Assembly (NCBI GenBank): GCA_019307135.1 | Contig: JAFDKF010000003.1 | Location: 978 to 64,977, forward strand | Direction: 5' to 3' | DNA length: 64,000 bases | Source of the DNA: Deltaproteobacteria bacterium | Lineage (GTDB): Bacteria; Desulfobacterota; Desulfobacteria; Desulfobacterales; C00003060 | Shown: in pieces, positions 5,801-27,728 of the stretch | Layout: each line of letters begins with the position of its first letter | Numbering within the stretch: the first letter of the stretch is position 1 | Notes under the pieces: generated by a model | Databases searched by the model: none | Told to the model about the DNA's origin: nothing | The model's input: the letters and a program-made list of their open reading frames with translations, nothing else | Position numbers and translations under genes: made by a program

Positions 5801-6528
5801 TCAGCGATCCGGTCAAGCGCGGTTCGGCATCCTTCCGCCAGCAGACCCAGCGTAAGCTCACCGACCTCAAGAAGGAATTCCTGAAATTGTACCTAAGCTT
5901 GCACACCAAGGCTCGGCTTGGGGTAAATGAGGACAAGAGAAAAGCAGCCCTTACTACTGATGCCCGACTTGAAACGCTTAAGAAACTCGTCACGGTTGAC
6001 CTGATGCCTCGACAACAATTAATAGATTTTCAAGAAAGACTGAATAAGCTTCAAAGCTGCTTCGCACTCACCGAGCAAGAACTGGATGCTGCGCCCGTCT
6101 GCCCGCACTGCAATTATAAGCCCGCAGCGGAGCCATCGACGGCCAAGGCAAGCACACTTCTCGATGGTCTGGACGACGAACTCGACACCCTGGTAGCGAA
6201 CTGGACACAGACGCTCCTGACCAACCTGGAGGACCCGACCACCAAGGGCAATCTGAACCTGCTAAAGACCGAGCCAAAAAAATTGGTGAACGGCTTCATC
6301 AAGAAACGTTCCCTGCCTGACAAACTTGACCAAAATTTCATCCGTGCTTTGAGTGAAGTGCTTTCAGGTCTTCAGAAGGTTCCGATTAAGATCGCAGACT
6401 TACGGGCAGCGTTGTTATCCGGTGGTTCACCGGTTACACCTGCGGAGATGAAGCAGCGGTTTGAGGATTACCTTGACGAGCTAATCAAAGGAAAAGAGCC
6501 TGAGAAAGTCAGGATTATCCTGGAATAA
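2887..6528 (+). CDS. brxC: BREX ATPase BrxC/PglY
   Basis: 1213 aa with an N-terminal Walker [14 protein letters not shown]. Length and operon position are typical of BrxC/PglY. Confidence 0.75.
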
Positions 6529-6539: not shown

Positions 6540-7715
6540 ATGAAGAAAAAATCAAAGAGATTACCAAAATCAAAGGATAGCCTTTTTGATCGTGTCGTAA
6601 CCATTCTGGAGCAAGCACGAACTAATGTTGTTCGTACCGTTAATAGCGAAATGGTGCTCGCCTACTGGCAGATCGGACGGGAGATCGTCCAGGAGCTTCA
6701 AAAGGGTGAGAATCGGGCTGAGTATGGCAAGCAAATTATTAAAGACCTTTCTGCAAAGTTGAATAAAAAATACGGAAGAGGATTCTCTTCAACAAATCTA
6801 TGGTATTTCAGGCAGTTCTATGTTGTGTACTCAAATCGGGAACCCAAGATTCGCCACAAGGCTTGTGGAGAATTGGTTTCCATGGAAAAACTCCACAAGC
6901 CTTGTGGAGTTTTGGATGATTTGAGCTTGGCAGTTGAAAAAAGTGAAGCCCTCCAAGGATTTTCACCACTATTAAGCTGGTCGCACTATCGCACATTGAG
7001 CAAGGTTGAGCATAAAAATGAACGTCTATTTTATGAGATTGAAGCCGAGAAAGAGGGCTGGAGCGTTCCTGTTTTGGAGCGGCAGATTCACTCTTTTCTT
7101 TTTGCGCGACTTCTGAAAAGCAGAGATAAAGACGGAGTTCTTGAGTTAGCAAAAGAAGGACAAGTTATAAAAACCCCGACCGATAGCATGAAAGATCCTT
7201 ATATCCTGGACTTTCTTGGTTTGCCTGATTCTAAGCAGATTCACGAATCAAAACTGGAATCTGCAATTATAGACAACATTCAGTCATTCCTTCTGGAGTT
7301 GGGAAAAGGCTTTGCTTTTGTCGCCCGACAAAAACGTCTTCAGTACGAAGACGAATTTTTGTATGTCGATCTTGTTTTTTATAACTGCATTCTGAAGTGC
7401 TACCTGCTGATTGACCTCAAGATTGCCAAACTCACCCATCAAGATATCGGTCAGATGGACAGCTATGTCCGCATGTTTGATGACCTTTTCATCGCCAAGG
7501 ATGATAATCCGACTATAGGTCTGATTCTCTGCTCTGAAAAGAACGAGGCCATTGCACGGTACTCCGTGCTTAACGACAGCAAACAGCTCTTTGCATCCAA
7601 GTACATGCTCTATCTGCCCACTGAAGAAGAACTACAGCGCGAGCTGGAGCGGGAACGACGGTTGATTGAAGAGAGACAGCAAGCGGGGGACCAAGGTGAC
7701 CAAGATAGTGACTAA
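6540..7715 (+). CDS. DUF1016/YhcG-like PD-(D/E)xK nuclease-family protein inserted between brxC and pglXI
   Basis: 391 aa. The N-terminus VVRTVNSEMVLAYWQIGREIV...YGKQIIKDLSAKL...FSSTNLWYFRQFY and the C-terminal YVDLVFYN...LLIDLKIAKL (D..D-x-K) resemble the YhcG family. It is AT-richer than the flanking BREX genes. Confidence 0.6.
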   Translation: MKKKSKRLPKSKDSLFDRVVTILEQARTNVVRTVNSEMVLAYWQIGREIVQELQKGENRAEYGKQIIKDLSAKLNKKYGRGFSSTNLWYFRQFYVVYSNREPKIRHKACGELVSMEKLHKPCGVLDDLSLAVEKSEALQGFSPLLSWSHYRTLSKVEHKNERLFYEIEAEKEGWSVPVLERQIHSFLFARLLKSRDKDGVLELAKEGQVIKTPTDSMKDPYILDFLGLPDSKQIHESKLESAIIDNIQSFLLELGKGFAFVARQKRLQYEDEFLYVDLVFYNCILKCYLLIDLKIAKLTHQDIGQMDSYVRMFDDLFIAKDDNPTIGLILCSEKNEAIARYSVLNDSKQLFASKYMLYLPTEEELQRELERERRLIEERQQAGDQGDQDSD

Positions 7716-7770: not shown

Positions 7771-10638
7771 ATGGCAAAACGTAAACAAACTTCAAGACCT
7801 TCTGAAAAGCTCTTTGCCGATGATCAAAGAGATCTATTTGAGAAGTCCTATGAAGAGCGGCTTAAGGAAGAAAAGAATAGGCCAGTGGAATGTCTCGGCA
7901 TGACCTTTGAGAACGACGAGAAGCGCCGGGAGTATTTCCTGGAGAAGCTACGCGAGAAGCTCAAGGACCCGGAGTTCCGCAAAATCGAGGGTTTCCCCAT
8001 TGGCTCGGACGAGGACATCCTGGCACTCTCTGATCCGCCGTACTACACGGCCTGCCCGAACCCGTTCATCGAGGATTTCATCAAGCAGTACGGAAAGCCG
8101 TATGACCCGGCTACCGATGATTATCGCCGTAAGCCCTTTGCCGCGGACACGGGCGCAGGGAAGACGCATCCCATCTACATGGCGCACTCGTACCATTCAA
8201 AGATTCCGCATCTGGCAATCATGCCCTGCATTCTGCATTACACCGAGCCGAGTGACATCGTGTTCGATGGATTTTCCGGTTCGGGGATGACAGGCGTTGC
8301 CGCCCAGTTGTGCGGACAGCCGGAGCCGGAGTTCAAGGCGTTACTGGAGAAGGATTGGAAGGATGCGGGCTATGGGGCGCCACAATGGGGTGTTCGCAGG
8401 CCGATACTGATGGATCTGTCACCCGTCGCTAATTTCATCGGGTACAACCTCAATCTTGCCCTTTCCGCCAGGGAGTTCAAAAAAGCCGGCCAGGCTTTTT
8501 TCAAGCAAATAGACGAAGAACTCGGCTGGATGTATGAAACGCTCCACACCGACGGCAAAACCAAGGGGCGTATCAACTATGTCGTCTGGTCGGAGGTCTT
8601 CACCTGCCCCAATTGCACTGGTGATGTGGTCTTCATGGAGCAGACCTACGATGCCAAGAGCGGGAAATTCACCAAGGAATACGAATGCCCGCACTGCAAG
8701 TCAGAAATGACCAACCGTAGTGCTGAACACAAGCTCACCACGCATTTTGACAAGGCCATCGGTGAAACCGTCCGCACCGTAACCTATCAGCCTGTCGAGA
8801 TCGAATACACGATTAGCGGAAACAAGGCCAAACACCGCAAGAAGCTCGACTCGGCGGACTTGGCTCTCATTGAAAGACTCAGGAACGAATTGCCCAAGGA
8901 CCGGTTCCCTTCCCAACCCATACCCGAGGAAATCTATCACTACTCGCGTCTTGAGCCGAAGGGCGTGACACATTTCCACCATTTCTATCTTCCCCGCGCT
9001 TTGCATGCACTTTCTGTCATGTGGCGTATTGCCGGGGAATGGCCAGATTCACGACTGCGAGGATTCTTAAAGTTTATGGTGGAGCAATGCTTTTGGGGCT
9101 TCTCTCTTTTAGCGAGATTCGTGCCGAGCCATTTCTCGCAGGTGAATCAATACCTCCCCAATGTCTACTATATTCCGCCATGCGTTGTTGAGATTTCGCC
9201 TTGGTACATATTGGATGGTAAGATCAAGCGTCTTCTAAAAATGCTCAAAGCTGAACAGCTTCCGCAATCATCTTACTTTTCCCAATCCACCACCTCGTCA
9301 TTGCAAACACCGATTCCCGATAGCAGTGTCGATTATGTCTATACCGACCTTCCCTTCGGCGACTTCGTGCCTTATGGCGATCTCAATCTGCTCATTGAAT
9401 CGTGGCACCAGGTGTTTGCCAATTTGCAGCATGAGGTTCTCGTTGATAAAAAACGGCAGAAAGCGGTGGATAAGTACGGTGTCATGATGAAGGAGGCATT
9501 TAGTGAACTCTACCGCATTATGAAGCCAAGTCGGTGGTCAACCATTGTTTTCCACAACTCGAAGAATGCGATCTGGAATGTCCTGCAAGATGCAATCGGC
9601 TCCGCCGGTTTCGTGATTGCCGATGCGCGAACCATGGACAGGGGCACAGGAAGTTACCGGCAATACACGGCTCAGATGGCAGTGAAGGCGGATGTCATTA
9701 TCTCCGCGTACAAACCGAATGGTGGACTCGAAGAGCGGTTCAAGCTTGAGGCCGGAACCGAGGACGGCGTCTGGGATTTCGTCCGCACGCACTTAAAGCA
9801 GCTCCCGATCTTCGTTTCCAAGGACGGACAGGCTGAAGTTATTGCCGAACGCCAAAACTACCTGCTCTTCGATCGAATGGTGGCATTTCACGTCCAGCGC
9901 GGTGTGACGGTTCCCGTGTCCGCCGCTGAGTTTTACGCGGGGCTTGAGCAGCGCTTTCCGCCACGTGACGGGATGTACTTCCTTCCAGACCAGGCGGCAG
10001 AGTATGACAAGAAGCGCATGACGGTGAGAGAGGTGCTCCAGCTTCAGCTTTTCGTCTCCGATGAAGCATCGGCCATCCAGTGGCTCAAGCAGCAGCTCAC
10101 CAAGAAACCGCAGACCTTCCAGGATATCCATCCGCAGTTCCTGAAAGAGATCGGCGGCTGGCAGAAGCATGAGAAGGCCCTGGAGCTTTCCGAACTGCTG
10201 GAACAAAACTTCCTGCGTTATGACGGCAAGGGCGAGGTTCCCAGCCAGATTCACAGCTACCTTTCCTCGAACTTCAAGGAGTTGCGCAACCTATCCAAGG
10301 ACGATCCTGCGCTCAAGGCCAAAGGCAAGGACCGCTGGTACGTGCCCGACCCGAACAAGGCTGGTGATCTGGAAAAGCTGCGCGAGCGGGCCCTGATGCG
10401 CGAGTTCGAGGAGTACCTGCCTGCGCCGAGGCTTCGGCAGGCAGGCCGTGAATCGAAACAGAAACGTCTGAAGGTGTTCCGTTTGGAGGCGGTTCGCTTT
10501 GGTTTCAAGAAGGCGTGGCAGGAGCGCGACTACGCAACTATCATCGCCGTGGCCTGCAAGATACCGGAAAAGATTCTCCAGGAGGACCCCAAACTCCTTA
10601 TGTGGTACGACCAGGCACTCACAAGGACAGGAGGTTGA
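7771..10638 (+). CDS. pglX: BREX type 3 DNA methyltransferase PglXI
   Basis: 955 aa. It has LSDPPYYTACPNPF, the SAM-binding FDGFSGSGMTGVAA, and a later YTDLPFGDF motif. It sits between brxC and the SNF2-like helicase. Confidence 0.7.
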   Translation: MAKRKQTSRPSEKLFADDQRDLFEKSYEERLKEEKNRPVECLGMTFENDEKRREYFLEKLREKLKDPEFRKIEGFPIGSDEDILALSDPPYYTACPNPFIEDFIKQYGKPYDPATDDYRRKPFAADTGAGKTHPIYMAHSYHSKIPHLAIMPCILHYTEPSDIVFDGFSGSGMTGVAAQLCGQPEPEFKALLEKDWKDAGYGAPQWGVRRPILMDLSPVANFIGYNLNLALSAREFKKAGQAFFKQIDEELGWMYETLHTDGKTKGRINYVVWSEVFTCPNCTGDVVFMEQTYDAKSGKFTKEYECPHCKSEMTNRSAEHKLTTHFDKAIGETVRTVTYQPVEIEYTISGNKAKHRKKLDSADLALIERLRNELPKDRFPSQPIPEEIYHYSRLEPKGVTHFHHFYLPRALHALSVMWRIAGEWPDSRLRGFLKFMVEQCFWGFSLLARFVPSHFSQVNQYLPNVYYIPPCVVEISPWYILDGKIKRLLKMLKAEQLPQSSYFSQSTTSSLQTPIPDSSVDYVYTDLPFGDFVPYGDLNLLIESWHQVFANLQHEVLVDKKRQKAVDKYGVMMKEAFSELYRIMKPSRWSTIVFHNSKNAIWNVLQDAIGSAGFVIADARTMDRGTGSYRQYTAQMAVKADVIISAYKPNGGLEERFKLEAGTEDGVWDFVRTHLKQLPIFVSKDGQAEVIAERQNYLLFDRMVAFHVQRGVTVPVSAAEFYAGLEQRFPPRDGMYFLPDQAAEYDKKRMTVREVLQLQLFVSDEASAIQWLKQQLTKKPQTFQDIHPQFLKEIGGWQKHEKALELSELLEQNFLRYDGKGEVPSQIHSYLSSNFKELRNLSKDDPALKAKGKDRWYVPDPNKAGDLEKLRERALMREFEEYLPAPRLRQAGRESKQKRLKVFRLEAVRFGFKKAWQERDYATIIAVACKIPEKILQEDPKLLMWYDQALTRTGG
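10416..10445. repeat. 30-nt palindromic element embedded in frame in pglXI (copy A)
   Basis: cctgcctgcgccgaggcttcggcaggcagg is the exact reverse complement of 15839-15868. It forms a 9-bp outer stem plus inner pairs and encodes LPAPRLRQAG. Confidence 0.85.
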
Positions 10639-10642
10639 TTCC

Positions 10643-13345
10643 ATGCTTATAGAAGTCATAACTGAGCTAAACGCTCCTAATACAGACAAGGGGAATCTAT
10701 TAGAAAACCTCGCTTCTGAATTTCTTAGGACGCAAGGTTATGAGGTGTCTTCTCAGGTTCGTGTTGCTGCATCTGAACTGGATTTGCTGTGCGAGCACAA
10801 GGTGTCAAAAAAACAAATATATGTAGAATGTAAAGCCCATAAAGATAATCTATCTGCCAAAGTTCTAGTCAATCTTCTTGGCACTGTTGATCTACACGAA
10901 TACTCGGAAGGATGGCTCGTAAGCACAGGCCCTTTGGGGCGAGATGCTAAAGGCTTTGTTGAAAAATGGGAGAATAAGCCTCCAGAAAAAAGGGAAAAAC
11001 TCTCCATATATAGTCCTGATCGTATATTGAATGCATTGTTAGACGCTAAAATAATCTCTTCAAAACCGGAATCTAAAGCGCAAGAAATGCTTTCTGGTCA
11101 TGATTTATCACTGGGCAAATGGATTTTGCTCATAACTCCATGGGGCAAATATTGGACCTGCCCGGTTTTAAAGGCTGGAGTGCCTAAATTCACCTCCTTT
11201 TTTGATGCATTGAATGGAAAGCCAGTAACCGATGAAGAATTCATTGATCGAGTTAAGTTAACTGATTTCAGTTTGAAAAATCTAGAGCCATTTGTCGCGT
11301 CAAGCCACGACGCACGTCAGGGAAATGACAATGCAGGGGGCGCTAAGTCCACTGCTGTTGTCGAGGTAGAATATGGCGAGAAGTGGTTTGACTATCGCCC
11401 AGCCAGACCGGAGCATTTTGTTGGTAGAAAGAATGAGCAACGAGAGCTACTGCAGTTTTTCACAAACATAAAGAATGGGAAAACGAACACACGCGTTTTT
11501 GCTATAAAAGGTGACTCTGGGATTGGAAAGAGTTCCTTGATTGCAAGGATACGTGATGTTACCAACAAGAGCCAAAAGCCAAACAACCTTTTTCTGTATG
11601 CAGTTGATGTTCGAGCTGCTAATGATTCTTCATACATCTATTCATCATTACTGGCAGCCCTTCGATCTGCTTCGCTGGATGGATTTGGAAGCAAGGAAGA
11701 ATTCGAGGTTACAGACTACATCGATCCTTTACAGAGCGAATCAATCAAATCTTTCTTAGACGGGTGTGAACGGAAACGCGAGATAGTAATTATTGTCTTC
11801 GATCAATTTGAGGAACTCTACTCAAAGGCTGAGTTGTTTTCTGTATTTGAAGAGGTCAAGAAACTGATGTTCTCTACTATTGCAGCATCTTCCAGTATTG
11901 TTCTTGGTTTTGCATGGAAAACAGATAGTACTGTCCCCCAGGATCACCCAGCTTATCATATGTGGCACCAATTGTCGGATCATCGATTTGAGATACTACT
12001 AAAGCCATTCAGCCACTCCGATGCTGAACAATCTCTCAGAATATTTGAGAACGAGTTGGGCGAAAAAATCCGTCCTGAACTTAGAAAGTACCTTTTAGAG
12101 AATAGCCAAGGATATCCTTGGCTTCTGAAGAAATTGTGTATTCATTTTTACGAACAACTACGGAGTGGTATAAGCCAACAGCAAATGGCAAACCGGTCAT
12201 TAGACATCTCTTCCTTATTTGACCAAGACTTGAATCATTTAACTGATGCTGAAATGGTGTGTTTAAAATTGGTAGCACAGAACGCCCCAATGGATTGGTA
12301 TGAAGTTCTTGAAATTGCTGGTCATGAAGTCGTTCAGTCTCTGCAAAACAAACGTGTACTGATTAAGCATGGGGATAAGCTTAACCTCTATTGGGACATA
12401 TTCAAAAATTATGTTTTATCTGGGATAATTCCATCGATTCCATTTACATATATTCCCCAATCACCATCGCTTAATGCATTATTGCATGTTTCATTAGAGC
12501 TTGATGATGCCGAAGGTAAGTCTATCAAAGAGTTGGCAGACAGTTCAAAACTTCAAGAGAGTACTGTTAGAAATATTATTCACGACTTGGAGCAATTTGG
12601 GGTTATTTATATCTCCAAAAGCGACATTACGATTGATAATCACCTGAGTAATTTAAATGCAAGGTCAATTCTATCTAGTATTAGACTGGTATTTAAGAGA
12701 CACGCACTTACTGAGATTTTAAAGAAAAACAATAGTGTAAAACCAGCCAATACAGATCAATTAATAAACTATCTAAAATCTATAAATCCTACAGCACAAT
12801 ATCATATTCGAACATGGACTACATATTCCAAAAGGATGTCTGCGTGGCTTCATGCATTTGGATTGATTACACAAACTACTAGTGGAATTATATATTCAGA
12901 TATTGGGGACATTGCTGGTGACGATATTAAAAAGTGGAGTGGTGAACGCAAACGAATAGTTTTCCTTGGAGATACATCACCTGTAAAAGTTGTGGAAGCA
13001 CTAGATCTTTTAAAAATGGGCGCAAAGGCACAAGTGAGCATGAAAAATATGGGATACCGTAATGCATGCGCCGTATTATATCGGTTCCGACTGTTAGAAC
13101 TAACTACGGCAGGCGAATATCGTGTTCCTGAGTGCAATATTACTGGTCGTTCATCGATGGAAGCTGTATGGGAAGAAGCCAGTAAAGAAGAGTCTCTCAA
13201 GCTGGTTATAAATAAACTCAAGGAAGGTACATTAATAAAACCACTGCAAATTGGGGAATTTGTTGCCGAGAGTTTCGGCAGGACCTGGAAAAAACTTCAT
13301 GGAAACGAATCGGGAATAGCCTTTGCCAATGGGCATTGTGGCTGA
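10643..13345 (+). CDS. Mrr-like restriction-endonuclease domain fused to a P-loop STAND/AAA-type NTPase and wHTH-like C-terminal region (BREX-embedded cargo 1)
   Basis: AGGAGG (10629-10634) sits 8 nt before the ATG at 10643. The N-terminus has GYEV...SELDLLCEH...IYVECK...WLVSTG (D-ExK, Mrr_cat-like). The centre has FVGRKNE...FAIKGDSGIGKSSL (Walker A) and IVIIVFDQFEEL (Walker B). The region is markedly AT-rich; a spot count on line 12361 gave 19/60 GC. Confidence 0.65.
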   Translation: MLIEVITELNAPNTDKGNLLENLASEFLRTQGYEVSSQVRVAASELDLLCEHKVSKKQIYVECKAHKDNLSAKVLVNLLGTVDLHEYSEGWLVSTGPLGRDAKGFVEKWENKPPEKREKLSIYSPDRILNALLDAKIISSKPESKAQEMLSGHDLSLGKWILLITPWGKYWTCPVLKAGVPKFTSFFDALNGKPVTDEEFIDRVKLTDFSLKNLEPFVASSHDARQGNDNAGGAKSTAVVEVEYGEKWFDYRPARPEHFVGRKNEQRELLQFFTNIKNGKTNTRVFAIKGDSGIGKSSLIARIRDVTNKSQKPNNLFLYAVDVRAANDSSYIYSSLLAALRSASLDGFGSKEEFEVTDYIDPLQSESIKSFLDGCERKREIVIIVFDQFEELYSKAELFSVFEEVKKLMFSTIAASSSIVLGFAWKTDSTVPQDHPAYHMWHQLSDHRFEILLKPFSHSDAEQSLRIFENELGEKIRPELRKYLLENSQGYPWLLKKLCIHFYEQLRSGISQQQMANRSLDISSLFDQDLNHLTDAEMVCLKLVAQNAPMDWYEVLEIAGHEVVQSLQNKRVLIKHGDKLNLYWDIFKNYVLSGIIPSIPFTYIPQSPSLNALLHVSLELDDAEGKSIKELADSSKLQESTVRNIIHDLEQFGVIYISKSDITIDNHLSNLNARSILSSIRLVFKRHALTEILKKNNSVKPANTDQLINYLKSINPTAQYHIRTWTTYSKRMSAWLHAFGLITQTTSGIIYSDIGDIAGDDIKKWSGERKRIVFLGDTSPVKVVEALDLLKMGAKAQVSMKNMGYRNACAVLYRFRLLELTTAGEYRVPECNITGRSSMEAVWEEASKEESLKLVINKLKEGTLIKPLQIGEFVAESFGRTWKKLHGNESGIAFANGHCG

Positions 13346-13451
13346 TGGCTCCTACAAATTCTGGAGGCCATATTCCAACTCCTCCAGGGCGTAAAACGAA
13401 CTCACAAGATAGTTCGCAACAAAGCTTGTTTGAGTTTTTTGGAGATGATAA

Positions 13452-13712
13452 GTGATAGAGTGTTGGCAGTATAGCACCATTCACGATTTCGTCTGCAAGG
13501 TTATCGAAACCCAGACGTTGTGGGACGATTCAACCTGCCGCGTCTGGCTGCCCGGTTCGGACTCCGTGGTGCGTATTCCGGCGGCCAATCTTAAACCGCT
13601 TGAGGACGCAACCAACATCGCCGTGGCACGCAAGATTCCAGAGAAGATTCTCCAGGAAGACCCCAAACTTCTAATGTGGTATGATCAGGCGGTAACAAGA
13701 ATGGGAGAGTAA
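13452..13712 (+). pseudogene. Fossil junction: brxHII 5' fragment fused in frame to a pglXI 3' fragment
   Basis: Residues CKVIETQTLWDDSTCRVWLPGSDSVVRIPAANLKPLED parallel the BrxHII N-terminus (CKVIESQTLWGETTCRVWIPGSDSLVRVPASRLSPLED, 15302-). Residues IAVARKIPEKILQEDPKLLMWYDQAVTRMGE parallel the PglXI C-terminus (IAVACKIPEKILQEDPKLLMWYDQALTRTGG, ending at 10638). Confidence 0.8.
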
Positions 13713-13715
13713 AAA

Positions 13716-14756
13716 ATGATAGAAGAAATCAAATTCGAAAATTTTACAGCCTTTAAGAAACTAAGAATCGAATTTTCACCTGGCATCAACATTTTTGTCG
13801 GAAGTAATGGGACGGGAAAAACCCATATTCTGAAAACTGTGTATGCGTCATGTGATATAACGAAATCAAAAAAGAACTTTGCTGAAAAAATATTACGGGT
13901 GTTTATGCCTTCAGCCAGCCAGCTTGGTAGATTGGTAAAACGCCAAAAGGTTAGCGCCAGAGGTTCTGTTGAAGTATTCCGTTCCGGTCCTGGCCTATTA
14001 GACACCGCAAAACTTCGCCTCTCTTTTTCCAATCATGCAACAAAAATAAAATCGGCCACCATTATCGGTGCGAACAATTGGTGCGCTATACCAATTGAAT
14101 CTGTATTTATTCCGGTTAAAGAGATGCTTTCCAACGCGCCTGGGTTTCACTCGATGTATAGCTTACGTGACGTTCATTTTGAAGAAGTGTACGCAGATAT
14201 TATTGACCGTGCTCTTTTGCCGCTTATGCGTGGGCCAGCGGATCGGGATCGAAAGAAGATATTATCGCATCTGCAAAAAGCAATGGAGGGCAAGGTCACA
14301 GTTAAAAACGAGGAGTTTTTTCTGCGAAATATACAGGGCAATCTTGAATTTTCTCTCCTTGCGGAAGGTATTCGAAAACTTGGTTTGCTTTGGGTCCTGA
14401 TCCAAAACGGCACATTACTAAAAGGGACAGTATTCTGCTGGGATGAGCCGGAAGCTAATCTAAATCCTAAGCTATTTCGGAATATTGTTGAGATTCTCTT
14501 AAGTCTTCAACGAATGGGCGTGCAAATATTCATTGCAACCCATGACTACGTTCTTCTAAAGGAATTCGATCTGCAAAAACAAGATAATGACAAGGTAAAA
14601 TTCCACTCTCTCTATCGTGATGAGGTAAGCAAAGAGATAAAAGAGCATCATACAGAAGATTATCTGCAAATTCATCCTAATACTATCCAAGATACTTTCA
14701 TTGATCTCTTTGACCGTGATGTAAAGCGTGACCTGGAGCTTTCAGCCAATGAATAA
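13716..14756 (+). CDS. ABC/SMC-type (AAA_21-like) ATPase (BREX-embedded cargo 2, gene A)
   Basis: 346 aa. Motifs are FVGSNGTGKTH (Walker A), LAEGIRKLGLL (signature-like), VFCWDEPEANLNP (Walker B/D-loop) and IFIATHD (H-loop). It starts 4 nt after the fossil pglXI stop. Confidence 0.7.
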   Translation: MIEEIKFENFTAFKKLRIEFSPGINIFVGSNGTGKTHILKTVYASCDITKSKKNFAEKILRVFMPSASQLGRLVKRQKVSARGSVEVFRSGPGLLDTAKLRLSFSNHATKIKSATIIGANNWCAIPIESVFIPVKEMLSNAPGFHSMYSLRDVHFEEVYADIIDRALLPLMRGPADRDRKKILSHLQKAMEGKVTVKNEEFFLRNIQGNLEFSLLAEGIRKLGLLWVLIQNGTLLKGTVFCWDEPEANLNPKLFRNIVEILLSLQRMGVQIFIATHDYVLLKEFDLQKQDNDKVKFHSLYRDEVSKEIKEHHTEDYLQIHPNTIQDTFIDLFDRDVKRDLELSANE

Positions 14757-15300
14757 GATGAAGATGCGAGAGGTCATTGAATCAGGCTTCAAGGTCACCC
14801 TATCCGAGGAGAACAGTTTCCGGTTTTGTGAAAGCTCTGCTTATCAGAGTCTTTCCGGCCTTAGCTTGAAAGAGATGGATGTCGGCTGGTGGAACACTAC
14901 CAATAGTAAGCTGTTCCTCCTTGAACTGAAGGGCCAAGAAATTTGGCGAGAATTCGACAAATCCGAAGACTTTGCCTACAAACACCTTGTGACAGCTATC
15001 AAGGGAAAGGTGACCGACGTTCTTTTGATGTTGGCCGCTGTCTGGGTTAAGACAGGTATTGGAAATGAGCTTAAAGCTCACATTCCTAACCCTGTTCATC
15101 AATATCGGGGAGAGGGCAGCATCAAGTTCATCTTTCTTATCGATACACCAGCCTCACGTCAATCCCTGCTGCTGCCGGTAAAGGATGCCATCAACAAGCA
15201 ACTCGCCGGACGGGTACGTCTTTTTGGCGTAAAGCATGTCACTCTGATCAATTTTGATGTAGCTCAAAAGATGGGGCTTCCCATAGAGAGACAGGCGTGA
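14749..15300 (+). CDS. Small protein with a PD-(D/E)xK-like motif (BREX-embedded cargo 2, gene B)
   Basis: The ATG at 14749 overlaps the ATPase stop (14754-14756), giving about 183 aa. It contains KEMDVGWWNTTNSKLFLLELKG (D...ExK spacing). Its stop at 15298-15300 is 1 nt before the brxHII ATG. I recognise no family with confidence. Confidence 0.5.
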   Translation: MNKMKMREVIESGFKVTLSEENSFRFCESSAYQSLSGLSLKEMDVGWWNTTNSKLFLLELKGQEIWREFDKSEDFAYKHLVTAIKGKVTDVLLMLAAVWVKTGIGNELKAHIPNPVHQYRGEGSIKFIFLIDTPASRQSLLLPVKDAINKQLAGRVRLFGVKHVTLINFDVAQKMGLPIERQA

Positions 15301-15301
15301 A

Positions 15302-18124
15302 ATGGACGTTGGCGACTGGTACTACACCCCCGACTACGGGCAGCTCTGTAAAGTCATCGAGTCCCAGACGCTTTGGGGCGAGACGACGTGCAGGGTGTGG
15401 ATACCCGGCAGTGATTCCTTAGTCCGTGTGCCTGCATCCAGACTCTCCCCCCTTGAGGATTCCGGGACGGGCACCGCTGATAGCATCGCCTATGTCGCCG
15501 CTGCTGCTCGGGTAGCCGATGCCCTGACCCAGGATATGCTTCTCGCGCCGATTGAATCATCTGTCATCCCGCTGCCACACCAGATTCGGGCGCTGTCCCG
15601 AGCCATCGCAGGTGACCGTGTGCGCTACCTGCTTGCCGATGAGGTAGGCTTGGGGAAGACCATCGAGGCCGGACTCATTCTGCGTGAGCTCAAGCTGCGC
15701 GGGCTGGCCAAGCGAACATTGGTTATCGCTCCAAAGGGCCTGGTGACTCAATGGGTGGCCGAGATGCGTACTCACTTTAACGAGGACTTTCGGCTGCTCA
15801 TCCCAAGCGATTTCTCGGCCTATCGACGCATCGCCAAACCTGCCTGCCGAAGCCTCGGCGCAGGCAGGGAGGACAACATCTGGCAGAGCCATCCGCAGGT
15901 GGTCTGTCCCATGGATTCGGTCAAGCCGCTGGAAAGTCGTCGCGGATGGTCGGATAAGCAGATGGCCGAATACAACCAGGAGCGGTTCGAGGACCTGATC
16001 TCCGCCGGCTGGGATCTGATTGTTGTGGACGAAGCCCACCGGCTCGGCGGCAGTACCGACCAGGTTGCCCGGTTCAAGCTGGGCCAGGGGCTTTCTGAGG
16101 CTGCACCGTATCTCTTGCTACTGTCGGCAACCCCTCACCAGGGTAAGACCGATGCTTTCCATAGGCTGGTATCTTTGATCGATAATCAGGCATTTCCTGA
16201 CGTGGGCAGCGTCACGCGGGATCGGGTCCAACATTATGTGATCCGGACCGAAAAGCGACGTGCTATCACGGCTGAAGGCAAGCCACTCTTCAAACCTCGT
16301 AAGACAGAGCTTGCTGCGGTCTCCTGGGAGGATCGGCATCAGGACCAGCGGCAGCTCTACGATGCGGTCACAGAGTATGTGCGGGAAGGTTACAACCAGG
16401 CCATGCGCGAGAAGCGCAGCTATATCGGGTTCCTCATGATCTTGATGCAGCGACTTGTAGTTTCCAGCACTAGCGCCATCCGCACTACGCTGGAACGCAG
16501 GCTGGATGCGCTTGAAGCACCGCAGGAGCAGCTGAGTCTATTTCCCATGTATTCCAACGAGGAATGGGCTGACCTTGACGGTCAGGAGCAAGTCGAAACG
16601 CTTCTGATCACTCGCCTGAAAGCGCTCAAAAACGAACGTGCCGAAGTAAAGCTGCTTCTCAATGCCGCCACCCGTTGCGAACAGGCGGGGGAGGATGTCA
16701 AGGCAGAGGCCCTGCTCGACTGGCTCTACCGTCTGCAGGCCGATGAAAACGACCCTGAACTGAAAGCCCTGGTATTCACCGAGTTTGTGCCGACCCAGCA
16801 GATGCTTCAGCAGTTCCTTTCTGAGCGTGGCTTTCCGGTTGCCTGCCTCAACGGCTCAATGGACATGGATGAGCGCAAAAAGGCCCAGGATACCTTTGCC
16901 GGGGAGGCACGCATTCTCATCTCTACCGATGCAGGCGGCGAGGGTCTGAATTTGCAGTTTTGCCACGTGGTGATCAATTACGACATTCCCTGGAACCCGA
17001 TGCGGCTTGAACAGCGCATCGGCCGGGTGGATCGTATCGGCCAAAACCATGTGGTGCGCGCCGTTAATTTCGTTTTTGAGGATTCGGTGGAGCACCGTGT
17101 ACGGGAAGTGCTGGAGGAGAAGCTTGCGGTTATCTTCGAGGAGTTCGGTATCGACAAGACGGGTGACGTACTCGACTCGGCCCAGGCTGGACAAATCTTT
17201 GATGACTTACATGTGGAGGCCATCCTCAACCCGAATGAGATCGACACATCTGTGGACAAGGTCATCGCTCGTTTGCAGGAACAGGCCCGAGATGCGAAGG
17301 CGAGTTCATCTGTCCTGGGAGCCACAGAGGACCTGGAACCATCTGAAGCCCAACGACTTATGACCCACCCCTTACCACACTGGGTCGAACGGATGACAGT
17401 GAGCTATCTTAATGCTCACGGCGGCAAAGCTGAGCGGAAACGACGGACCTGGGACTTGACGTGGCCGGACGGCGAAACAACTGCCAAGGTCGTCTTCAGC
17501 GGCAAGGAAGCAGACCAATCCCCCACAGCCCGCCACTTGACATTGGAGGATTCCAGGGTTCGGGGGCTGGCCACGAGATTGCCTCGTTTTGTTCCAGGGC
17601 AGCCGATCTCCGTTGTCACAATCCCAGGGATCACCGACGAGGTTACTGGCCTATGGTCTCTCTGGCAGATCGGCATCACAACGATGGAATGGAATCGCCA
17701 CCGGATCATGCCTTTATTCATAGCTGATGGCGGGAATATTTTTGCCCCAGCCGCCAGGCATCTCTGGGACAAGCTTTTGGGTGTGACGCCTAATGTCCGG
17801 ACGCATCTTGACATGGACGAATCCAAGGAAGCCTTCGATAGACTGGCAGGGATTGCAGAAGAGCAAGGACGAACCATCTACGATGAGCTTGTTCAAGAAC
17901 ACCGGTCGCGTCTGACCCGAGAAAGAGAAAAAGGGGAATATGCCTTCGCTGCCAGGCGTAGTGTCATCGAACGAGTCGGCCTTCCCCAGGTACGCGACCA
18001 TCGGTTGACCCTCCTGCGGCAGGAAGAGCAAGCGTGGAACGAGGATCTTAAGCTGAAAGCACAAGTGTATCCGGAAATGGTGCCTCTTATCGTTATCCGC
18101 GTGGAAGGAGGTGCCAATGAGTAG
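15302..18124 (+). CDS. brxHII: BREX type 3 SNF2/DEAD-like helicase BrxHII
   Basis: 940 aa with LLADEVGLGKT (motif I), VVDEAHRLG (DEAH), LSATPHQGK, LISTDAGGEGLNLQ and EQRIGRVDRIGQ (motif VI). Confidence 0.75.
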   Translation: MDVGDWYYTPDYGQLCKVIESQTLWGETTCRVWIPGSDSLVRVPASRLSPLEDSGTGTADSIAYVAAAARVADALTQDMLLAPIESSVIPLPHQIRALSRAIAGDRVRYLLADEVGLGKTIEAGLILRELKLRGLAKRTLVIAPKGLVTQWVAEMRTHFNEDFRLLIPSDFSAYRRIAKPACRSLGAGREDNIWQSHPQVVCPMDSVKPLESRRGWSDKQMAEYNQERFEDLISAGWDLIVVDEAHRLGGSTDQVARFKLGQGLSEAAPYLLLLSATPHQGKTDAFHRLVSLIDNQAFPDVGSVTRDRVQHYVIRTEKRRAITAEGKPLFKPRKTELAAVSWEDRHQDQRQLYDAVTEYVREGYNQAMREKRSYIGFLMILMQRLVVSSTSAIRTTLERRLDALEAPQEQLSLFPMYSNEEWADLDGQEQVETLLITRLKALKNERAEVKLLLNAATRCEQAGEDVKAEALLDWLYRLQADENDPELKALVFTEFVPTQQMLQQFLSERGFPVACLNGSMDMDERKKAQDTFAGEARILISTDAGGEGLNLQFCHVVINYDIPWNPMRLEQRIGRVDRIGQNHVVRAVNFVFEDSVEHRVREVLEEKLAVIFEEFGIDKTGDVLDSAQAGQIFDDLHVEAILNPNEIDTSVDKVIARLQEQARDAKASSSVLGATEDLEPSEAQRLMTHPLPHWVERMTVSYLNAHGGKAERKRRTWDLTWPDGETTAKVVFSGKEADQSPTARHLTLEDSRVRGLATRLPRFVPGQPISVVTIPGITDEVTGLWSLWQIGITTMEWNRHRIMPLFIADGGNIFAPAARHLWDKLLGVTPNVRTHLDMDESKEAFDRLAGIAEEQGRTIYDELVQEHRSRLTREREKGEYAFAARRSVIERVGLPQVRDHRLTLLRQEEQAWNEDLKLKAQVYPEMVPLIVIRVEGGANE
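15839..15868. repeat. 30-nt palindromic element embedded in frame in brxHII (copy B, inverted relative to copy A)
   Basis: cctgcctgccgaagcctcggcgcaggcagg is the reverse complement of 10416-10445. Here it encodes PACRSLGAGR. Confidence 0.85.
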
Positions 18125-20123
18125 CTGGCGCGACCAGATTCTCAAGGAGTTCACTCCAAAGGTGGCCCGTTTGACCCTGGTGGCAGATCCCGACGGACTT
18201 CTCCTGGAGGAAGGGATTCTTGAAGGAATACGCGAGCGGGGCTTTGAATTGATCCCATTCGAGGATCACGTTGCCTTCCGATATGCCTATGAAACCAAGT
18301 TCCGTTCCCGCTGGGACAAGGGAGAGCAGACGGATCTGGTCGTCGCACTTCGCTCAGGAGCCAGCGATCTTGGTTCCTTGCCGTACGATCTGCTTCAAGC
18401 TGGTCGCCGGTTATCCTTCAACCTTGGAGAGATATTTCCAAACTTGAGCTATCCGGTGATAGCCGCCTTGGACCGCGGAGATCTTGAGGCGCTTTTTGAT
18501 GCCCAAAAACGACATGCACCCGGTGTCTTGGGCGACAATGCTAGCAAAGAGTTCGTTCTGCGGCATGTCTTCGAGATCGCGCCTGAATTGATCAGAAAGC
18601 CGTCTGATCTGCTTCGCGTGCTGCTACGCCGCCATTACCGTGAACAGCGCATCCCGACGATTCTGGATGAACGTTTCATCCAGGTCCTTAGCCAGAACGA
18701 CGGCTTTGAAGGGTGGCCGCTCGATTCCATCATCCCGGACCGAGAAGCGTTTTTCGCCTTTCTCCAGGAACGCTGGCCCATTTTTCTCGACCGGTCGGCA
18801 AAACAAAATGGTTCAGAGATCAGCGAGAAAAAGAAAGCCTATGGGCTTGAATTTTCGGGTCCCTCGGGCTTGCCTTTTGACCACGATGATATCCGTGTCT
18901 ACATTGACAATCTGTTCCTTGAAGGATTGCTTCAAGCCGTTTCCCATAAGCGAGCCGATTCTCTGTCCAAAACCTGGCTCGCAATTGGCATCCGTACCGA
19001 TGAGCAGGCAGATCGAACGCGTCGCGTGAATGGCCTGCTTGACAATATAGCGTCCACCATCCCGAAAGAGGATACGCGGCATGATGACTGGTTTCACTTT
19101 GCCAAAACATGGGCAGAGCTTATGGCGCTTGTTTTGGAACCGGAGTCGGCGTTGCCCGAACCGGCCCATCAAAGGATCCAATCCCTACAAACCAAAATTG
19201 ATGCCGTGCTTGTGACCTGGCTGAAAAAGCGATACGCAGGACTGTTCAATCTGCCGCCGGTACCGCCAGTCATGCTTCACCACATTCCCCGATTCCTCGC
19301 CCGATACATCGGTAATGCCAAGGAAAACAGGGTCGCATTCATTTTGGTGGATGGGCTTTCGCTTGATCAGTGGATCGTCATACGCAAGGCCCTTACTCAA
19401 CAACGCCAAAGATATCGATTCCGCGAAACCGCGGTCTTCGCCTGGATACCGACAATCACATCCGTCTCACGCCAAGCCGCCTTTGCCGGCAGACCGCCTA
19501 TTTACTATCCTAACAGTATCCATACCACGGATAAAGAATCCGTCCTGTGGACGCAATTCTGGGTAGACCAGGGCCTGACACAACATGAAGTCATATACGC
19601 TAAGGGATTAGGCCACGGCCCTCTTAACAACGTTGAAGAGTTGATTGCAAACCCAAAGATACGGGTTGCCGGTCTGATCGTAAACAAAGTGGATAAGATC
19701 ATGCATGGTATGGAGCTCGGTGCAGCGGGAATGCATAATCAGATTCGACAATGGGCTTTACAGCCGTTCATGACGAATCTTATAGAACTGCTTTTAAACA
19801 ATAGATACCGTATCTACCTGACATCGGACCACGGAAATGTGGAGGCTGTCGGATGTGGCCGTCCTGCTGAAGGAGCGGTTGCGGATTTACGCGGTGAGCG
19901 CGTACGAATTTATTCCAATTCTATCCTTCGTGGTCAAATCAAGGATCGCTTTCCGGATGCTCTAGAATGGCCCCCTGTAGGTCTGCCGGAAAACTATTTG
20001 CCTTTACTTGCCCCAGGCCGCTCAGCATTTGTTCGTGAAACAGAACGCCTTGTCGGCCACGGCGGTATTTCCCTGGAAGAGGTCGTCGTCCCTCTCGTTC
20101 AAATCGAAATGGGGGTCGCATGA
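18117..20123 (+). CDS. pglZ: BREX alkaline-phosphatase-superfamily protein PglZ
   Basis: About 668 aa with FILVDGLSLDQW and YLTSDHGN motifs. The ATG at 18117 overlaps the brxHII stop (18122-18124). Confidence 0.75.
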   Translation: MSSWRDQILKEFTPKVARLTLVADPDGLLLEEGILEGIRERGFELIPFEDHVAFRYAYETKFRSRWDKGEQTDLVVALRSGASDLGSLPYDLLQAGRRLSFNLGEIFPNLSYPVIAALDRGDLEALFDAQKRHAPGVLGDNASKEFVLRHVFEIAPELIRKPSDLLRVLLRRHYREQRIPTILDERFIQVLSQNDGFEGWPLDSIIPDREAFFAFLQERWPIFLDRSAKQNGSEISEKKKAYGLEFSGPSGLPFDHDDIRVYIDNLFLEGLLQAVSHKRADSLSKTWLAIGIRTDEQADRTRRVNGLLDNIASTIPKEDTRHDDWFHFAKTWAELMALVLEPESALPEPAHQRIQSLQTKIDAVLVTWLKKRYAGLFNLPPVPPVMLHHIPRFLARYIGNAKENRVAFILVDGLSLDQWIVIRKALTQQRQRYRFRETAVFAWIPTITSVSRQAAFAGRPPIYYPNSIHTTDKESVLWTQFWVDQGLTQHEVIYAKGLGHGPLNNVEELIANPKIRVAGLIVNKVDKIMHGMELGAAGMHNQIRQWALQPFMTNLIELLLNNRYRIYLTSDHGNVEAVGCGRPAEGAVADLRGERVRIYSNSILRGQIKDRFPDALEWPPVGLPENYLPLLAPGRSAFVRETERLVGHGGISLEEVVVPLVQIEMGVA

Positions 20124-20935
20124 ACGTACGGGCAAGCCAAATCGGGTTCAGCCAACGCATCCGCCTTGAATGGCTTGAACAGACAGCTAACCTTGTATTG
20201 GCTGGAAACGATAAAACTGAAATCAACGATTCTCTCCAGGAACTGCTGAAGAATAAGGTCTCCATCGGAGGTGAAGCCATCCGGGGCAATCGAGAGAAGG
20301 TCATCTCCATCCTTATGAAGACATGGCTCACCGTACCCCGCGGCTTGGAAGCACTCCGCGATGAAGGCTTGCAGATACATCAGGGGCTGCCTCGTAAAGA
20401 CCGCATTGCTGTTCACTGGGGCATGGCATTGGCCGCTTATCCGTTCTGGGGTGCGGTCGCCGCGCACACCGGTCGCCTGCTGCGACTTCAGGGAACGGCT
20501 GCGGCAGCCCACGTTCAGCGTAGAGTTAAAGAACAATACGGAGAGCGCGAAACCGCCTCCCGGGCAGCCCGGCGTGTCTTAAGGTCATTCATCGACTGGA
20601 ACGTCCTGAATGAGACGGATGATAAAGGCGTATACGCCCAGGGTATTCGCTATTCGATTCAAGACCCCAGGCTCATTTCCTGGATGGTGGAGGCGTCTTT
20701 GCACGCCCGCGCAAACGGTTCCGCCGCCACCAAAGACTTACTCGATGGCCCAAGTATATTTCCCTTTCGCCTGGCGCACATCACTGCAGAGCACTTGGCA
20801 TCTTTATCGCCTCGTCTGGACTTATTACGGCACGGCTTGGATGAGGATCTGATGATGCTGAGACAAAGAGACCGGCAAGTGAACGGAAAGACAAAGGAGT
20901 TTGAGGGTGGTCCATGGGCAAACGCAAAATCATAA
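20120..20935 (+). CDS. BREX-associated protein in the brxA position (BrxA-like, positional call only)
   Basis: 271 aa with an ATGA overlap with the pglZ stop. It is the last gene of the operon, where type 3 BREX carries brxA. I cannot verify a DUF1819 signature by eye. Confidence 0.4.
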   Translation: MNVRASQIGFSQRIRLEWLEQTANLVLAGNDKTEINDSLQELLKNKVSIGGEAIRGNREKVISILMKTWLTVPRGLEALRDEGLQIHQGLPRKDRIAVHWGMALAAYPFWGAVAAHTGRLLRLQGTAAAAHVQRRVKEQYGERETASRAARRVLRSFIDWNVLNETDDKGVYAQGIRYSIQDPRLISWMVEASLHARANGSAATKDLLDGPSIFPFRLAHITAEHLASLSPRLDLLRHGLDEDLMMLRQRDRQVNGKTKEFEGGPWANAKS

Positions 20936-21768
20936 GACGCCGAAAAATTCCAAAAGTGACTTGCTCTGATATTCTCGGAGATCACCCTACTGACTGTCAT
21001 CCTTTGGGTGTTTTACTCACTGCGTCAGATGGATCGACCGAAAGTGGGGTTCCTCACAGGACACTTTCAGAATGCACTGGCCAAAGAAAAGCCATCGTTG
21101 AATGTGTTCGCGAAATGCTGGTTCAACATCATGTGAGTCCGGAAGCTTTGGAACGGGACAGACAAAGACGTGAGGCAATGCAACGCTTGGGATTTGAAGA
21201 TGATCAGTCTCGCATGAAGCGTTTTCCAACGAATCCAACAACACAAAAAGGTAATCTCGCGGAAGTCTTACTGGCAGAATATATTGCTGCTGCAAATGAA
21301 GTTTCTTTGCCTGTCTATCGTCTCAGGTACAATCCAAATGTTGAACAGGCAATGAAAGGTGATGATGTACTCGCTTTCGATTTGGACTCCGATCCTGTAC
21401 GGGTGATTGTCGGGGAATCGAAATTCCGAACAATATCTTCAAAAGCTGCTGTGATTGATATTGTTGAAGGTCTGGTTCGTTCATATAAGGGCGGTATCCC
21501 AGCATCATTGCAGTTTGTAGCGGATCGATTATTTGAGACGGGCAAAGCTGGTCTTGGCGAACGAATTCTTGAATGCGCAACCTTGTTCGCACTGGAAAAG
21601 CTACAGCTTGAATATGTTGGGCTGTTGATGAGTGATACCCGCACTGCGAACAGAATGAATCAGCACACGGTTAATTCCTTTCATCGACTTGCGGTAATTT
21701 CATTTGGCCTGGATTCGCCGGGCTCAATTGTTGATCCCTGTTTTAAAGGCTTGGAGGAATGCAAATGA
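20914..21768 (+). CDS. hamA: HamA-like (DUF1837-type) PD-(D/E)xK protein of a Hachiman-like module
   Basis: 284 aa with QKGNLAEVLLAEY...GDDVLAFDLD...VIVGESKF. It has a 4-nt overlap with the following helicase-N-terminus ORF, matching the hamA-hamB order. Confidence 0.5.
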   Translation: MGKRKIIRRRKIPKVTCSDILGDHPTDCHPLGVLLTASDGSTESGVPHRTLSECTGQRKAIVECVREMLVQHHVSPEALERDRQRREAMQRLGFEDDQSRMKRFPTNPTTQKGNLAEVLLAEYIAAANEVSLPVYRLRYNPNVEQAMKGDDVLAFDLDSDPVRVIVGESKFRTISSKAAVIDIVEGLVRSYKGGIPASLQFVADRLFETGKAGLGERILECATLFALEKLQLEYVGLLMSDTRTANRMNQHTVNSFHRLAVISFGLDSPGSIVDPCFKGLEECK

Positions 21769-22685
21769 CGATTCCTGTTGAGCAAGCACAAAGAGTAGTC
21801 ACATCTTTACAGGCCGGACGGATTCAAAATCTGTTTGCACAATCCCATGCAAAGCATGTTTTACATGAGGTTAATGAATCGCCGGACAATTTTCCTGCTT
21901 TTGACAAGCAGCTTGAAGACAAGGTCACCTTTACAGCCTATGCTCTCCTCGCTGCAAGTTGCAGCCTGTTGGAGCAAAAGACTATTGAAGAAGGTGCATC
22001 TGGCCTTGAGATGGCAGCGGTCCTTTTGCAAAACGTTCATGGGCCATTTGTGGAAGAGTCCCGCGAGAGTAGTTTTCATTTACTGGTCTCTTCAATGGCA
22101 TTTTATGCTTCCGGACATTATTCCCGAGCTTTTGTTGCGATTCGCCAAGTGGAGAGCACTACAAAGGAAGCTGGTGTAATTGCAGCGTTCATTCGGAAAG
22201 ATTTCAAAAGTCTGATTCAACGTCTTAACGGAATTTTGCTCCAGGATATACCGGAGTTCGAAGATCAAACCAACCTCGATCAATGGGCAATTACGATAGC
22301 AATCGCACGTTCTTTAGCCTACACTTTAGAATTCATAATGACTGGGGTTGAGGATATTCGAAGTGAAATTGGCCGAACACTCGAAGATGCATCAGTGATT
22401 GCGATGGCTGGGTTATCGCCATCTCACTGGTGGATTGTCCGATTATTGAAGTTGATGTTACAAAAACTTAGTGAGGCATCTTTATGGAAAACCCTTCCGC
22501 CATTTTTTGATCCAGAAGCGAATTCCCATCTGGATCGATACGTACGTTTGCTGGCTTTCTCGAAAACACCCGTCATCGAGTTATGGGCATCACAACGTGC
22601 TGCCCTATCACTTGCGTTAAACCCGACAAATCGAGGTGGAGTTGTCAACTTGAAGGAAACAGAAGGGTCAGGTCTCAACATTTGA
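21765..22685 (+). pseudogene. hamB: Truncated HamB-like helicase (N-terminal ~300 aa only)
   Basis: It ends ...VIELWASQRAALSLALNPTNRGGVVNL and then KETEGSGLNI-stop. That is exactly where a helicase Walker A (PTGSGKT) should follow. No helicase core is found downstream. The break coincides with the hairpin at 22665-22714. Confidence 0.55.
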
Positions 22686-22734: not shown

Positions 22735-22833
22735 CCTACAGTCGCCGCGCCGTTAGGCCGACCAACAACATTGTGGATGTGCAATTGTAAAGTTGGTGGT
22801 TGGCGTGATCCAAGAGCTTTGGGAGGAAACACA

Positions 22834-23637: not shown

Positions 23638-23730
23638 GTGCCTAACAATGCGTTTGCACACTGACCGGCTTTATCGTGCGGCCTTTGAATGGTTTTGCAG
23701 TGCACAGTTTTGGGCTATCAACAATATTTA

Positions 23731-23845
23731 AGGCGCCCCCCGCCGGCAGGTGAAACGCGCCGTTGGCGGAGCTGAGCCTTCGGCTCCCAGCGCCTGGTAG
23801 TCGCTTCGCTCCGGTCCTATCGGCGCGGCGGCTGTGGCCACCCGC
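23731..23845. other. 115-nt GC-rich, hairpin-dense island (candidate structured RNA or element end, unassigned)
   Basis: A sharp composition jump. It contains GAGCC-TTC-GGCTC, CCGCC...GGCGG and GCGCC...GGCGC pairings. It has no convincing ORF. Confidence 0.3.
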
Positions 23846-23998
23846 GGAAAACTCAATGGTGTCACATCTTGAATTGTGAATAAGGCTTTAGGAAAACTCA
23901 ATAAACTCAATGGTGTCACATCTTGAATTGTGAATAAGGCTTTAGGAAAACTCAATAAACTCAATGGTGTCACATCTTGAATTGTGAATAAGGCTTTA
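23846..23998. repeat. Tandem repeat, 3 units (45, 54 and 54 bp)
   Basis: Unit is ggaaaactcaat(aaactcaat)ggtgtcacatcttgaattgtgaataaggcttta. Each unit contains the palindrome TCACA-N8-TGTGA. There are no spacers. Confidence 0.9.
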
Positions 23999-24057
23999 TA
24001 GTTATAGCATTCACCAGGACAGAATCCAGGGCTATTATGAACTACATGGTAATGAGT

Positions 24058-24129: not shown

Positions 24130-24193
24130 CCAAATATTTCGGACCTCGATGGAAAGATCAAGACCAAAGAACCCCACACGTTAAAGGTGCGCT

Positions 24194-27705: not shown

Positions 27706-27728
27706 CTCTTGTAAGTAGATAAACACAG

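Follow-up and report, generated by a model that had tools for sequence, protein, structure and literature searches.

The type 3 bacteriophage exclusion (BREX) operon on a 64,000-nucleotide stretch of deltaproteobacterial DNA (contig JAFDKF010000003.1; the whole stretch is referred to as the window) carries two small overlapping genes between pglXI and brxHII, here called gene A (13716-14756) and gene B (14749-15300), and the locus raises the question of whether this pair constitutes a defence module of its own and whether such a module has been described before. The original prediction, made from the sequence alone, had considered the pair a candidate for an undescribed module consisting of an ABC-type ATPase and a small PD-(D/E)xK-like protein, the latter not assignable to any family. 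The analysis reported here indicates that the pair is very probably a member of the HEC-02 anti-phage systems, representing a divergent subtype which was horizontally acquired and resides within a type 3 BREX locus, at the point where pglXI and brxHII meet. HEC-02 stands for 'Hma-embedded candidate' system 02 of Payne et al. (bioRxiv 10.1101/2024.01.29.577857), whose two components are an ABC ATPase and a NERD-like PD-(D/E)xK protein marked by a (D/E/Q)xK signature. Several coliphages plaque less well on E. coli carrying the representative from Dickeya dianthicola NCPPB 3534, an effect that depends on both genes (10.1101/2024.01.29.577857). The module is already named, modelled and, at the family level, experimentally supported, and it is not a new system. 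A literature search for HEC-02 under variant spellings found nothing further of relevance.

Assignment of the gene pair to HEC-02

Both proteins match HEC-02 models of PADLOC-DB over their full lengths. Gene A is recognized by the HEC-02A model PDLC04213 with an E value of 2.9e-130 (residues 1-340 on positions 1-334 of 337), and gene B by the HEC-02B model PDLC04224 with an E value of 1.2e-39 (residues 6-178 on positions 1-174 of 182), with weaker matches also to four other HEC-02B models. Because both proteins match these models and HEC-02 has been published, gene B can be assigned to a family after all, namely the HEC-02B subfamily modelled by PDLC04224, and the supposed novelty of the module has to be given up. 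The original prediction had itself stated that a match of the pair to an already named system would speak against it, and the PADLOC models provide exactly such a match. As judged from the sequences, the window copy is a divergent HEC-02 subtype which PADLOC already models. Other parts of the prediction gain support: the combination of an ABC-type ATPase with a small PD-(D/E)xK-like partner in a two-gene module agrees with the conserved D...ExK motif, and the proposed defence function agrees with the membership of the pair in a family with demonstrated anti-phage activity, shown for the Dickeya representative of HEC-02. All motifs quoted there were also found in genes A and B.

The motifs of gene A comprise the Walker A sequence GSNGTGKTH (aa 28-36, nt 13797-13823, including K35), the signature-like LAEGIRK (aa 215-221, nt 14358-14378), the Walker B sequence CWDEPEANLNP (aa 241-251, nt 14436-14468, including D243 and E244) and the H-loop ATHD (aa 274-277, nt 14535-14546), and the residues G29, N31, T33-H37, G218, R220, K221, W242-E246 and A274-H276 are invariant or nearly so among the homologues. 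Pfam assigns the protein to AAA_21, AAA_15, AAA_23 and SMC_N, i.e., to ABC/SMC-like ATPases, and NCBIfam returns only ABC-type matches, all far below their cut-offs. The experimentally tested HEC-02A of Dickeya is 35% identical over about 300 residues (E 7e-59). When solved structures were searched with the sequence of gene A, no match extended beyond the P-loop and Walker B segments. The AlphaFold2 model, with a pLDDT score (predicted local distance difference test) of 82.5, has Septu PtuA (8eea) as its top Foldseek match in the PDB (E 1.6e-16, template modeling score 0.59), followed by further PtuA chains (8sux, 9n6c and 9vhe), a retron PtuA, and Rad50 and SMC heads. The protein is predicted to adopt an ABC-ATPase fold most similar to those of Septu PtuA and of the Rad50 and SMC heads, and its Walker A, Walker B and H-loop are intact.

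Gene B carries the motifs MDVGWW (aa 43-48) and LFLLELKG (aa 55-62), in which D44 (nt 14878-14880) and E59 (nt 14923-14925) are invariant and K61 (nt 14929-14931) is nearly invariant among 33 homologues. An alignment of this family, referred to as window-type B, to the main HEC-02B family by hhalign gives an E value of 4.9e-5 at a probability of 68% with the motifs in register, the main family having its own conserved D...E-x-K-D motif. The corresponding alignment to the tested Dickeya protein gives an E value of 0.0036 and pairs KEMDV with KAMDV and LLELKG with LIEVKD. In the AlphaFold2 model (pLDDT 92, predicted template modeling score 0.89), D44 is located at the start of one strand and E59 and K61 on the next strand, as would be expected of a PD-(D/E)xK core, and Foldseek finds a weak and partly local likeness to the PD-(D/E)xK enzymes HamA, FAN1, MUS81, ERCC1 and the endonuclease of lymphocytic choriomeningitis virus, which is suggestive only. 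No match to gene B was obtained from NCBIfam, and when the sequences in the PDB were searched with a profile of the gene B family, zero matches were obtained at E values up to 10. The nuclease fold of gene B is regarded as putative, since it rests on the conserved triad, the modelled topology and the homology to the published NERD-like HEC-02B proteins.

Organization and composition of the gene pair

The ATG of gene B at 14749 is located inside ATGAATAA, which contains the stop codon of gene A, resulting in an overlap of 8 nt, and is preceded by GGAG at a distance of 10 nt. An alternative GTG start at 14728 would yield a protein of 190 aa, but the ATG at 14749 is favored by the homologues and by the gene call of the Joint Genome Institute. 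Downstream, exactly 1 nt separates the stop of gene B from the ATG of brxHII (15300/15302), and upstream, an open reading frame (ORF) ends with TAA at 13710-13712, 3 nt before the ATG of gene A. The junctions thus read confirm that two coupled genes lie between a pglXI remnant and brxHII, and that gene B ends 1 nt before brxHII, as had been predicted. Both genes are regarded as real rather than as chance ORFs because many full-length homologues exist for either of them.

The GC content amounts to 40.3% for gene A (37.5% at third codon positions, GC3) and 47.1% for gene B, compared with 52-57% for the six BREX genes (GC3 55-66%). Because of these values, the expectation of a pair much richer in AT than the BREX genes holds clearly for gene A, but only moderately for gene B. 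That the module was acquired horizontally and is embedded in the BREX locus finds support in the foreign GC content, in a chimeric scar described below and in the BREX genes on either side.

Co-occurrence and distribution

The original prediction had proposed to survey whether homologues of the two genes co-occur and whether they are found in defence islands. Co-occurrence proved to be near-universal: an HEC-02B-type gene is present in 81 of 83 genome loci with a gene A homologue, and gene A lies directly upstream in all 25 metagenome loci that contain a window-type B gene and readable upstream sequence. Among the 80 genome loci retrieved with the gene A profile, 73 have a downstream ORF of about 160-190 aa, whose start overlaps the stop of gene A by 4 nt in most genome loci. 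Almost all of these partners (69/73) belong to one family, the main HEC-02B family, and all 36 partners sampled from it match other PADLOC HEC-02B models, e.g., PDLC04229. The window-type B is much rarer, being represented in two of the 80 genome loci retrieved with gene A plus three contigs found by their B homologues, compared with 76 loci for the main family, and accounting for 262 clusters (50% identity) among 1.84 billion representatives. No relative of gene B was detected on the viral contigs scanned.

With respect to defence islands, the pair is found repeatedly, though by no means always, within BREX and other defence loci, many homologous pairs being located among housekeeping genes. 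Insertion between pglXI and brxHII has recurred in many lineages. Type 3 BREX genes flank the pair after pglXI in loci L006, L010, L014, L017, L020, L023, L024, L053 and L069, and pglXI and/or brxHII-type flanks occur also in L086-L088, L091-L093, L096, L097 and L101. Within the window-type subfamily, such flanks are present in at least 9 of 27 metagenome contigs, which are mostly short. Two further loci (L001 and L002), 99.8-100% identical to the window, belong to its own genome and give no independent context. Three loci have the pair between the brxC and pglX genes of a different BREX type, and the immediate neighbours elsewhere include type III and type IIG restriction-modification (RM) genes, SspH, components of MADS, and DrmD. 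The three long contigs with gene B homologues all contain A and B as an isolated pair among housekeeping genes.

Proposed acquisition through the ends of BREX genes

The 86-aa ORF which ends directly before gene A bears on the origin of the insertion. Its residues 2-59 match positions 4-61 of BrxH and its residues 53-86 match positions 885-918 of the 919-position PglXI model in PADLOC, and it consists of a diverged 5' fragment of brxHII (about nt 13464-13606) fused in frame to the 3' end of pglXI (nt 13606-13712). By blastn, the two parts are 68% identical to brxHII (15345-15459) and 82% identical to the resident pglXI (10532-10633), respectively, while the pglXI part, comprising the last 34 codons, is 88% identical to the end of pglXI in the metagenome locus L086. 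In L086 (1-2900), an unstacked order of pglXI, HEC-02A, HEC-02B and brxHII is found, and the nucleotide identity between this locus and the window is 96% for HEC-02A, 83.5% for HEC-02B and 85% for the 5' end of brxHII. Fusion ORFs of the same type are present on both sides of HEC-02 in L091 (1837-2064 and 3620-4024) and L093 (2007-2234 and 3802-4194), where, as in the window, they delimit stacked cassettes. As a separate observation, the different identities of genes A and B to L086 and their GC contents of 40% and 47% point to a mosaic history within the pair.

The simplest reading of these fusions would be that cassettes are carried from one type 3 BREX locus to another along with the terminal parts of pglXI and brxHII, and that two such cassettes were joined in the window, leaving the brxH-5'::pglXI-3' scar. 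The stop codon before gene A, which the original prediction had attributed to a fossil pglXI, is real, but it belongs to this chimeric ORF and not to a plain pglXI remnant, which the joining of two cassettes would explain. HEC-02 is considered an import, to which both the scar and the close match of gene A to L086 (96% at the nucleotide level) point. The arrangement suggests that exchange and stacking proceed through the ends of the BREX genes, possibly at an 'IA(Y)VA' microhomology common to both proteins. If this is true, recombination within these terminal parts of pglXI and brxHII would represent a concrete mechanism for the exchange and accumulation of embedded defence systems, with the scar recording the import of a cassette with BREX homology arms, followed by stacking.

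Since PADLOC would label the pair as HEC-02 automatically, little is added in terms of discovery. The value of the locus lies rather in documenting a divergent HEC-02 subtype with a strong link to the pglXI/brxHII junction in type 3 BREX, and in offering a clear case from nature in which a single BREX operon harbors three foreign cassettes.

Relation to other defence systems

The window pair and the published HEC-02 have the same gene order, in which the gene for an ABC ATPase (about 340 aa) precedes, on the same strand, an overlapping gene whose product of about 170-185 aa contains a D...(D/E/Q)xK motif, and both are nested in a multi-gene defence system. The window pair differs in that its gene B belongs to the rarer PDLC04224 subfamily, which is only remotely linked to the main and the tested B proteins, and in that the host system is type 3 BREX instead of Hma.

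Septu likewise combines a stand-alone ABC ATPase with a small nuclease, and the model of gene A best matches PtuA chains, but PtuB is an HNH nuclease, whereas gene B contains a D-ExK motif. At the sequence level, an assignment to Septu fails, as the PADLOC PtuA models cover only aa 1-47 of gene A, around the P-loop (E about 1e-10 to 4e-11), the NCBIfam score for PtuA is 35.8 bits versus a cut-off of 500, and gene B has no HNH or PtuB match in PADLOC or Pfam. PARIS resembles the pair in coupling an AAA_21-type ATPase sensor (AriA) to a nuclease effector (AriB, TOPRIM/DUF4435). It was rejected because the AriA model matches only a part of gene A (aa 145-281, E 4.7e-21), at a level far below that of HEC-02A, and because gene B does not match AriB and is not a TOPRIM protein. 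Gabija, which combines GajA, an ATPase fused to TOPRIM, with the UvrD-like helicase GajB, was rejected as well: the GajA models match only aa 2-53 of gene A, and there is neither a TOPRIM domain nor a gene for a GajB-type helicase. Systems embedded in BREX or RM loci, such as BrxU and PrrC, are similar to the window pair as autonomous, co-oriented defence genes nested in a larger defence operon, and the embedded system of PrrC is also an ABC-ATPase system. However, BrxU (GmrSD-type) and PrrC (an anticodon nuclease) belong to protein families unrelated to HEC-02.

Alternative explanations and proposed function

Several observations weigh against the assignment of the window pair as an anti-phage HEC-02 module. 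The only tested homologue of HEC-02 is distant from the window subtype, gene A being 35% identical and gene B remotely similar. Searches with the gene B model by Foldseek returned nothing significant from either the PDB (best E 0.25) or BFVD (best E 0.048), and Pfam searches with all 33 gene B homologues gave only noise at E values up to 10, with no NERD match. Many homologous pairs are located among housekeeping genes rather than in defence islands. Finally, a promoter and terminator scan of positions 10400-15600 found fewer promoter-like sites than in shuffled controls, and none before gene A. An independent transcription unit cannot be claimed for the pair, as no promoter-like site lies ahead of gene A.

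The last point is also in line with the pair being no autonomous system at all, but an accessory of type 3 BREX, either as a coupled restriction or back-up function that depends on BrxHII, PglXI or PglZ, or as an anti-BREX guard. The single nucleotide to the ATG of brxHII and the association of the window-type B with the pglXI/brxHII junction in the metagenome loci counted above, most of them on short contigs, would agree with such a role, for which PrrC within EcoprrI offers a precedent of an embedded ABC-ATPase system coupled to its host (discussed in 10.1101/2024.01.29.577857). Still, the same subtype is found without a nearby BREX gene on the long contigs L083, L084, L085, L095, L098 and L110, the Dickeya HEC-02 works alone in E. 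coli (10.1101/2024.01.29.577857), and the main HEC-02 family occurs mostly outside BREX, all of which renders an accessory role unlikely. The stand-alone, scattered occurrence among housekeeping genes might in turn be expected of a toxin-antitoxin (TA)-like addiction module, in which a nuclease toxin and a restraining ATPase stabilize an island or mobile DNA instead of sensing phages. The overlapping genes, whose products are likely made in a fixed ratio, and the label 'putative AbiEii toxin, type IV TA system' that Pfam gives to AAA_21 fit this notion, which is nevertheless very improbable in view of the phage protection measured for HEC-02 (10.1101/2024.01.29.577857), the lack of homologues on the viral contigs scanned and the lack of any sign of toxicity in the present analysis, although TA-like behaviour and abortive infection are not mutually exclusive. 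That a housekeeping pair for DNA repair or recombination, composed of a RecF/Rad50-like ATPase and a nuclease, should have come to lie here by chance can hardly be believed: the N-terminal part of gene A weakly matches RecF, Rad50, RecN and SMC, and its model also resembles Rad50 and SMC heads, but all NCBIfam matches are far below the cut-offs, the pair is not accompanied by coiled-coil or Mre11-type partners, and its sporadic occurrence across phyla, its foreign GC content and its repeated embedding in BREX and other defence loci are not those of a housekeeping function.

For an HEC-02 module, the proposed mode of action would be that HEC-02A serves as an ATP-dependent sensor and regulator which holds or recruits HEC-02B, and which upon a phage cue would license the PD-(D/E)xK-type HEC-02B to cut nucleic acid. 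Such a cue might come from a protein of the phage, for instance an anti-BREX factor, from a DNA structure or from an altered nucleotide pool, and the possible target would be either phage DNA or, in the manner of abortive infection, cellular DNA. Because no promoter-like site precedes gene A, the pair would probably be co-transcribed with brxHII and pglZ, acting as a second layer beside BREX. With its BREX-wired organization, this HEC-02 subtype appears suited to asking whether embedded ABC-ATPase systems sense anti-BREX factors.

A further issue is whether the window subtype represents more than a routine copy of HEC-02. Gene B has no significant structural neighbour and can hardly be recognized as a relative of the main HEC-02B family. 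Gene A, in contrast, resembles the A partners of the main B family as closely as it resembles those of the window-type B, and in a neighbour-joining tree of the A proteins, the partners of the window-type B are scattered among those of the main B family, on short internal branches and with no bootstrap support. Polyphyly of the window-type partners is therefore a hint and not a result. These observations would fit an effector that was exchanged repeatedly while the ATPase was conserved, and so would a chemistry of the gene B effector which differs from that of NERD-type nucleases. That effector swapping or different chemistry, combined with cassette movement through the ends of pglXI and brxHII, sets the window subtype apart from a routine copy is a tentative proposal with a low chance of being correct.

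Host locus and neighboring insertions

The window contains a complete, co-oriented type 3 BREX operon, whose six genes all give full-length matches in PADLOC (Table 1). Three low-GC insertions are located within this operon, namely a DUF1016/PDC-S02 gene, an Mrr_cat-STAND gene and HEC-02.

Table 1. Coordinates of the BREX genes, the inserted genes and further features of the defence island in the window.
Feature	Position	Orientation	Remarks
brxF	2376-2852	co-oriented	PADLOC, full length
brxC	2887-6528	co-oriented	PADLOC, full length
DUF1016_N + YhcG_C PD-(D/E)xK nuclease gene	6540-7715		between brxC and pglXI; PADLOC candidate PDC-S02, E 4e-141; 43.5% GC
pglXI	7771-10638	+	methyltransferase; left border of the insertion hot spot; PADLOC PglXI model PDLC02541, E 0, full length
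Mrr_cat + STAND NTPase (nSTAND1/AAA_16) gene	10643-13345	+	about 900 aa; 40% GC; Pfam Mrr_cat (2.6e-11), AAA_16, nSTAND1, NA-iREase1
Chimeric brxH-5'::pglXI-3' ORF	13452-13712	+	86 aa; between Mrr_cat-STAND gene and HEC-02
Gene A (HEC-02A)	13716-14756	+	ABC-type (AAA_21/AAA_15) ATPase; 346 aa, ATG to TAA
Gene B (HEC-02B, divergent subfamily)	14749-15300	+	putative PD-(D/E)xK-type nuclease effector; 183 aa, ATG to TGA
brxHII	15302-18124	+	SNF2-type helicase; right border; PADLOC BrxHI/BrxHII model PDLC02500, E 0, full length
pglZ	18111-20123	co-oriented	PADLOC, full length
brxA	20120-20935	co-oriented	PADLOC, full length
Exo_endo_phos family protein	22771-23637		defence island continuing past the Hachiman remnant
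Perfect 54-nt tandem repeat	23849-23998		2.8 copies
AbiJ-type protein	26794-27705		AbiJ_NTD3 and Abi_C domains
HATPase_c_4/winged helix-turn-helix protein	28295-29401

The PDC-S02 gene occupies the same position between brxC and pglXI in L014. In this locus, also one of type 3 BREX, about 8 kb (8819-16791) separate the end of pglXI from the start of brxHII, comprising HEC-02 (10001-11523) and further uncharacterized sequence, which shows that several cassettes have gathered at the same junction in other lineages too. The Mrr_cat-STAND gene follows pglXI after a gap of 4 nt, and its product has a C-terminal region resembling a winged helix-turn-helix. It matches no named PADLOC system and has no solved relative, while there are at least 1256 clusters of homologues of about 930 aa, typical members of which exceed the window copy by about 30 aa. 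This gene may be the less-described defence candidate of the locus.

Directly after brxA, a Hachiman remnant (20914-22685) starts with a full-length HamA (E 9e-102), followed by an ORF of 308 aa. Of the 1104 positions in the HamB model, this ORF matches no more than 1-296, and the helicase thus appears to be truncated. The defence island continues beyond this remnant from 22771 to 29401 of the window.

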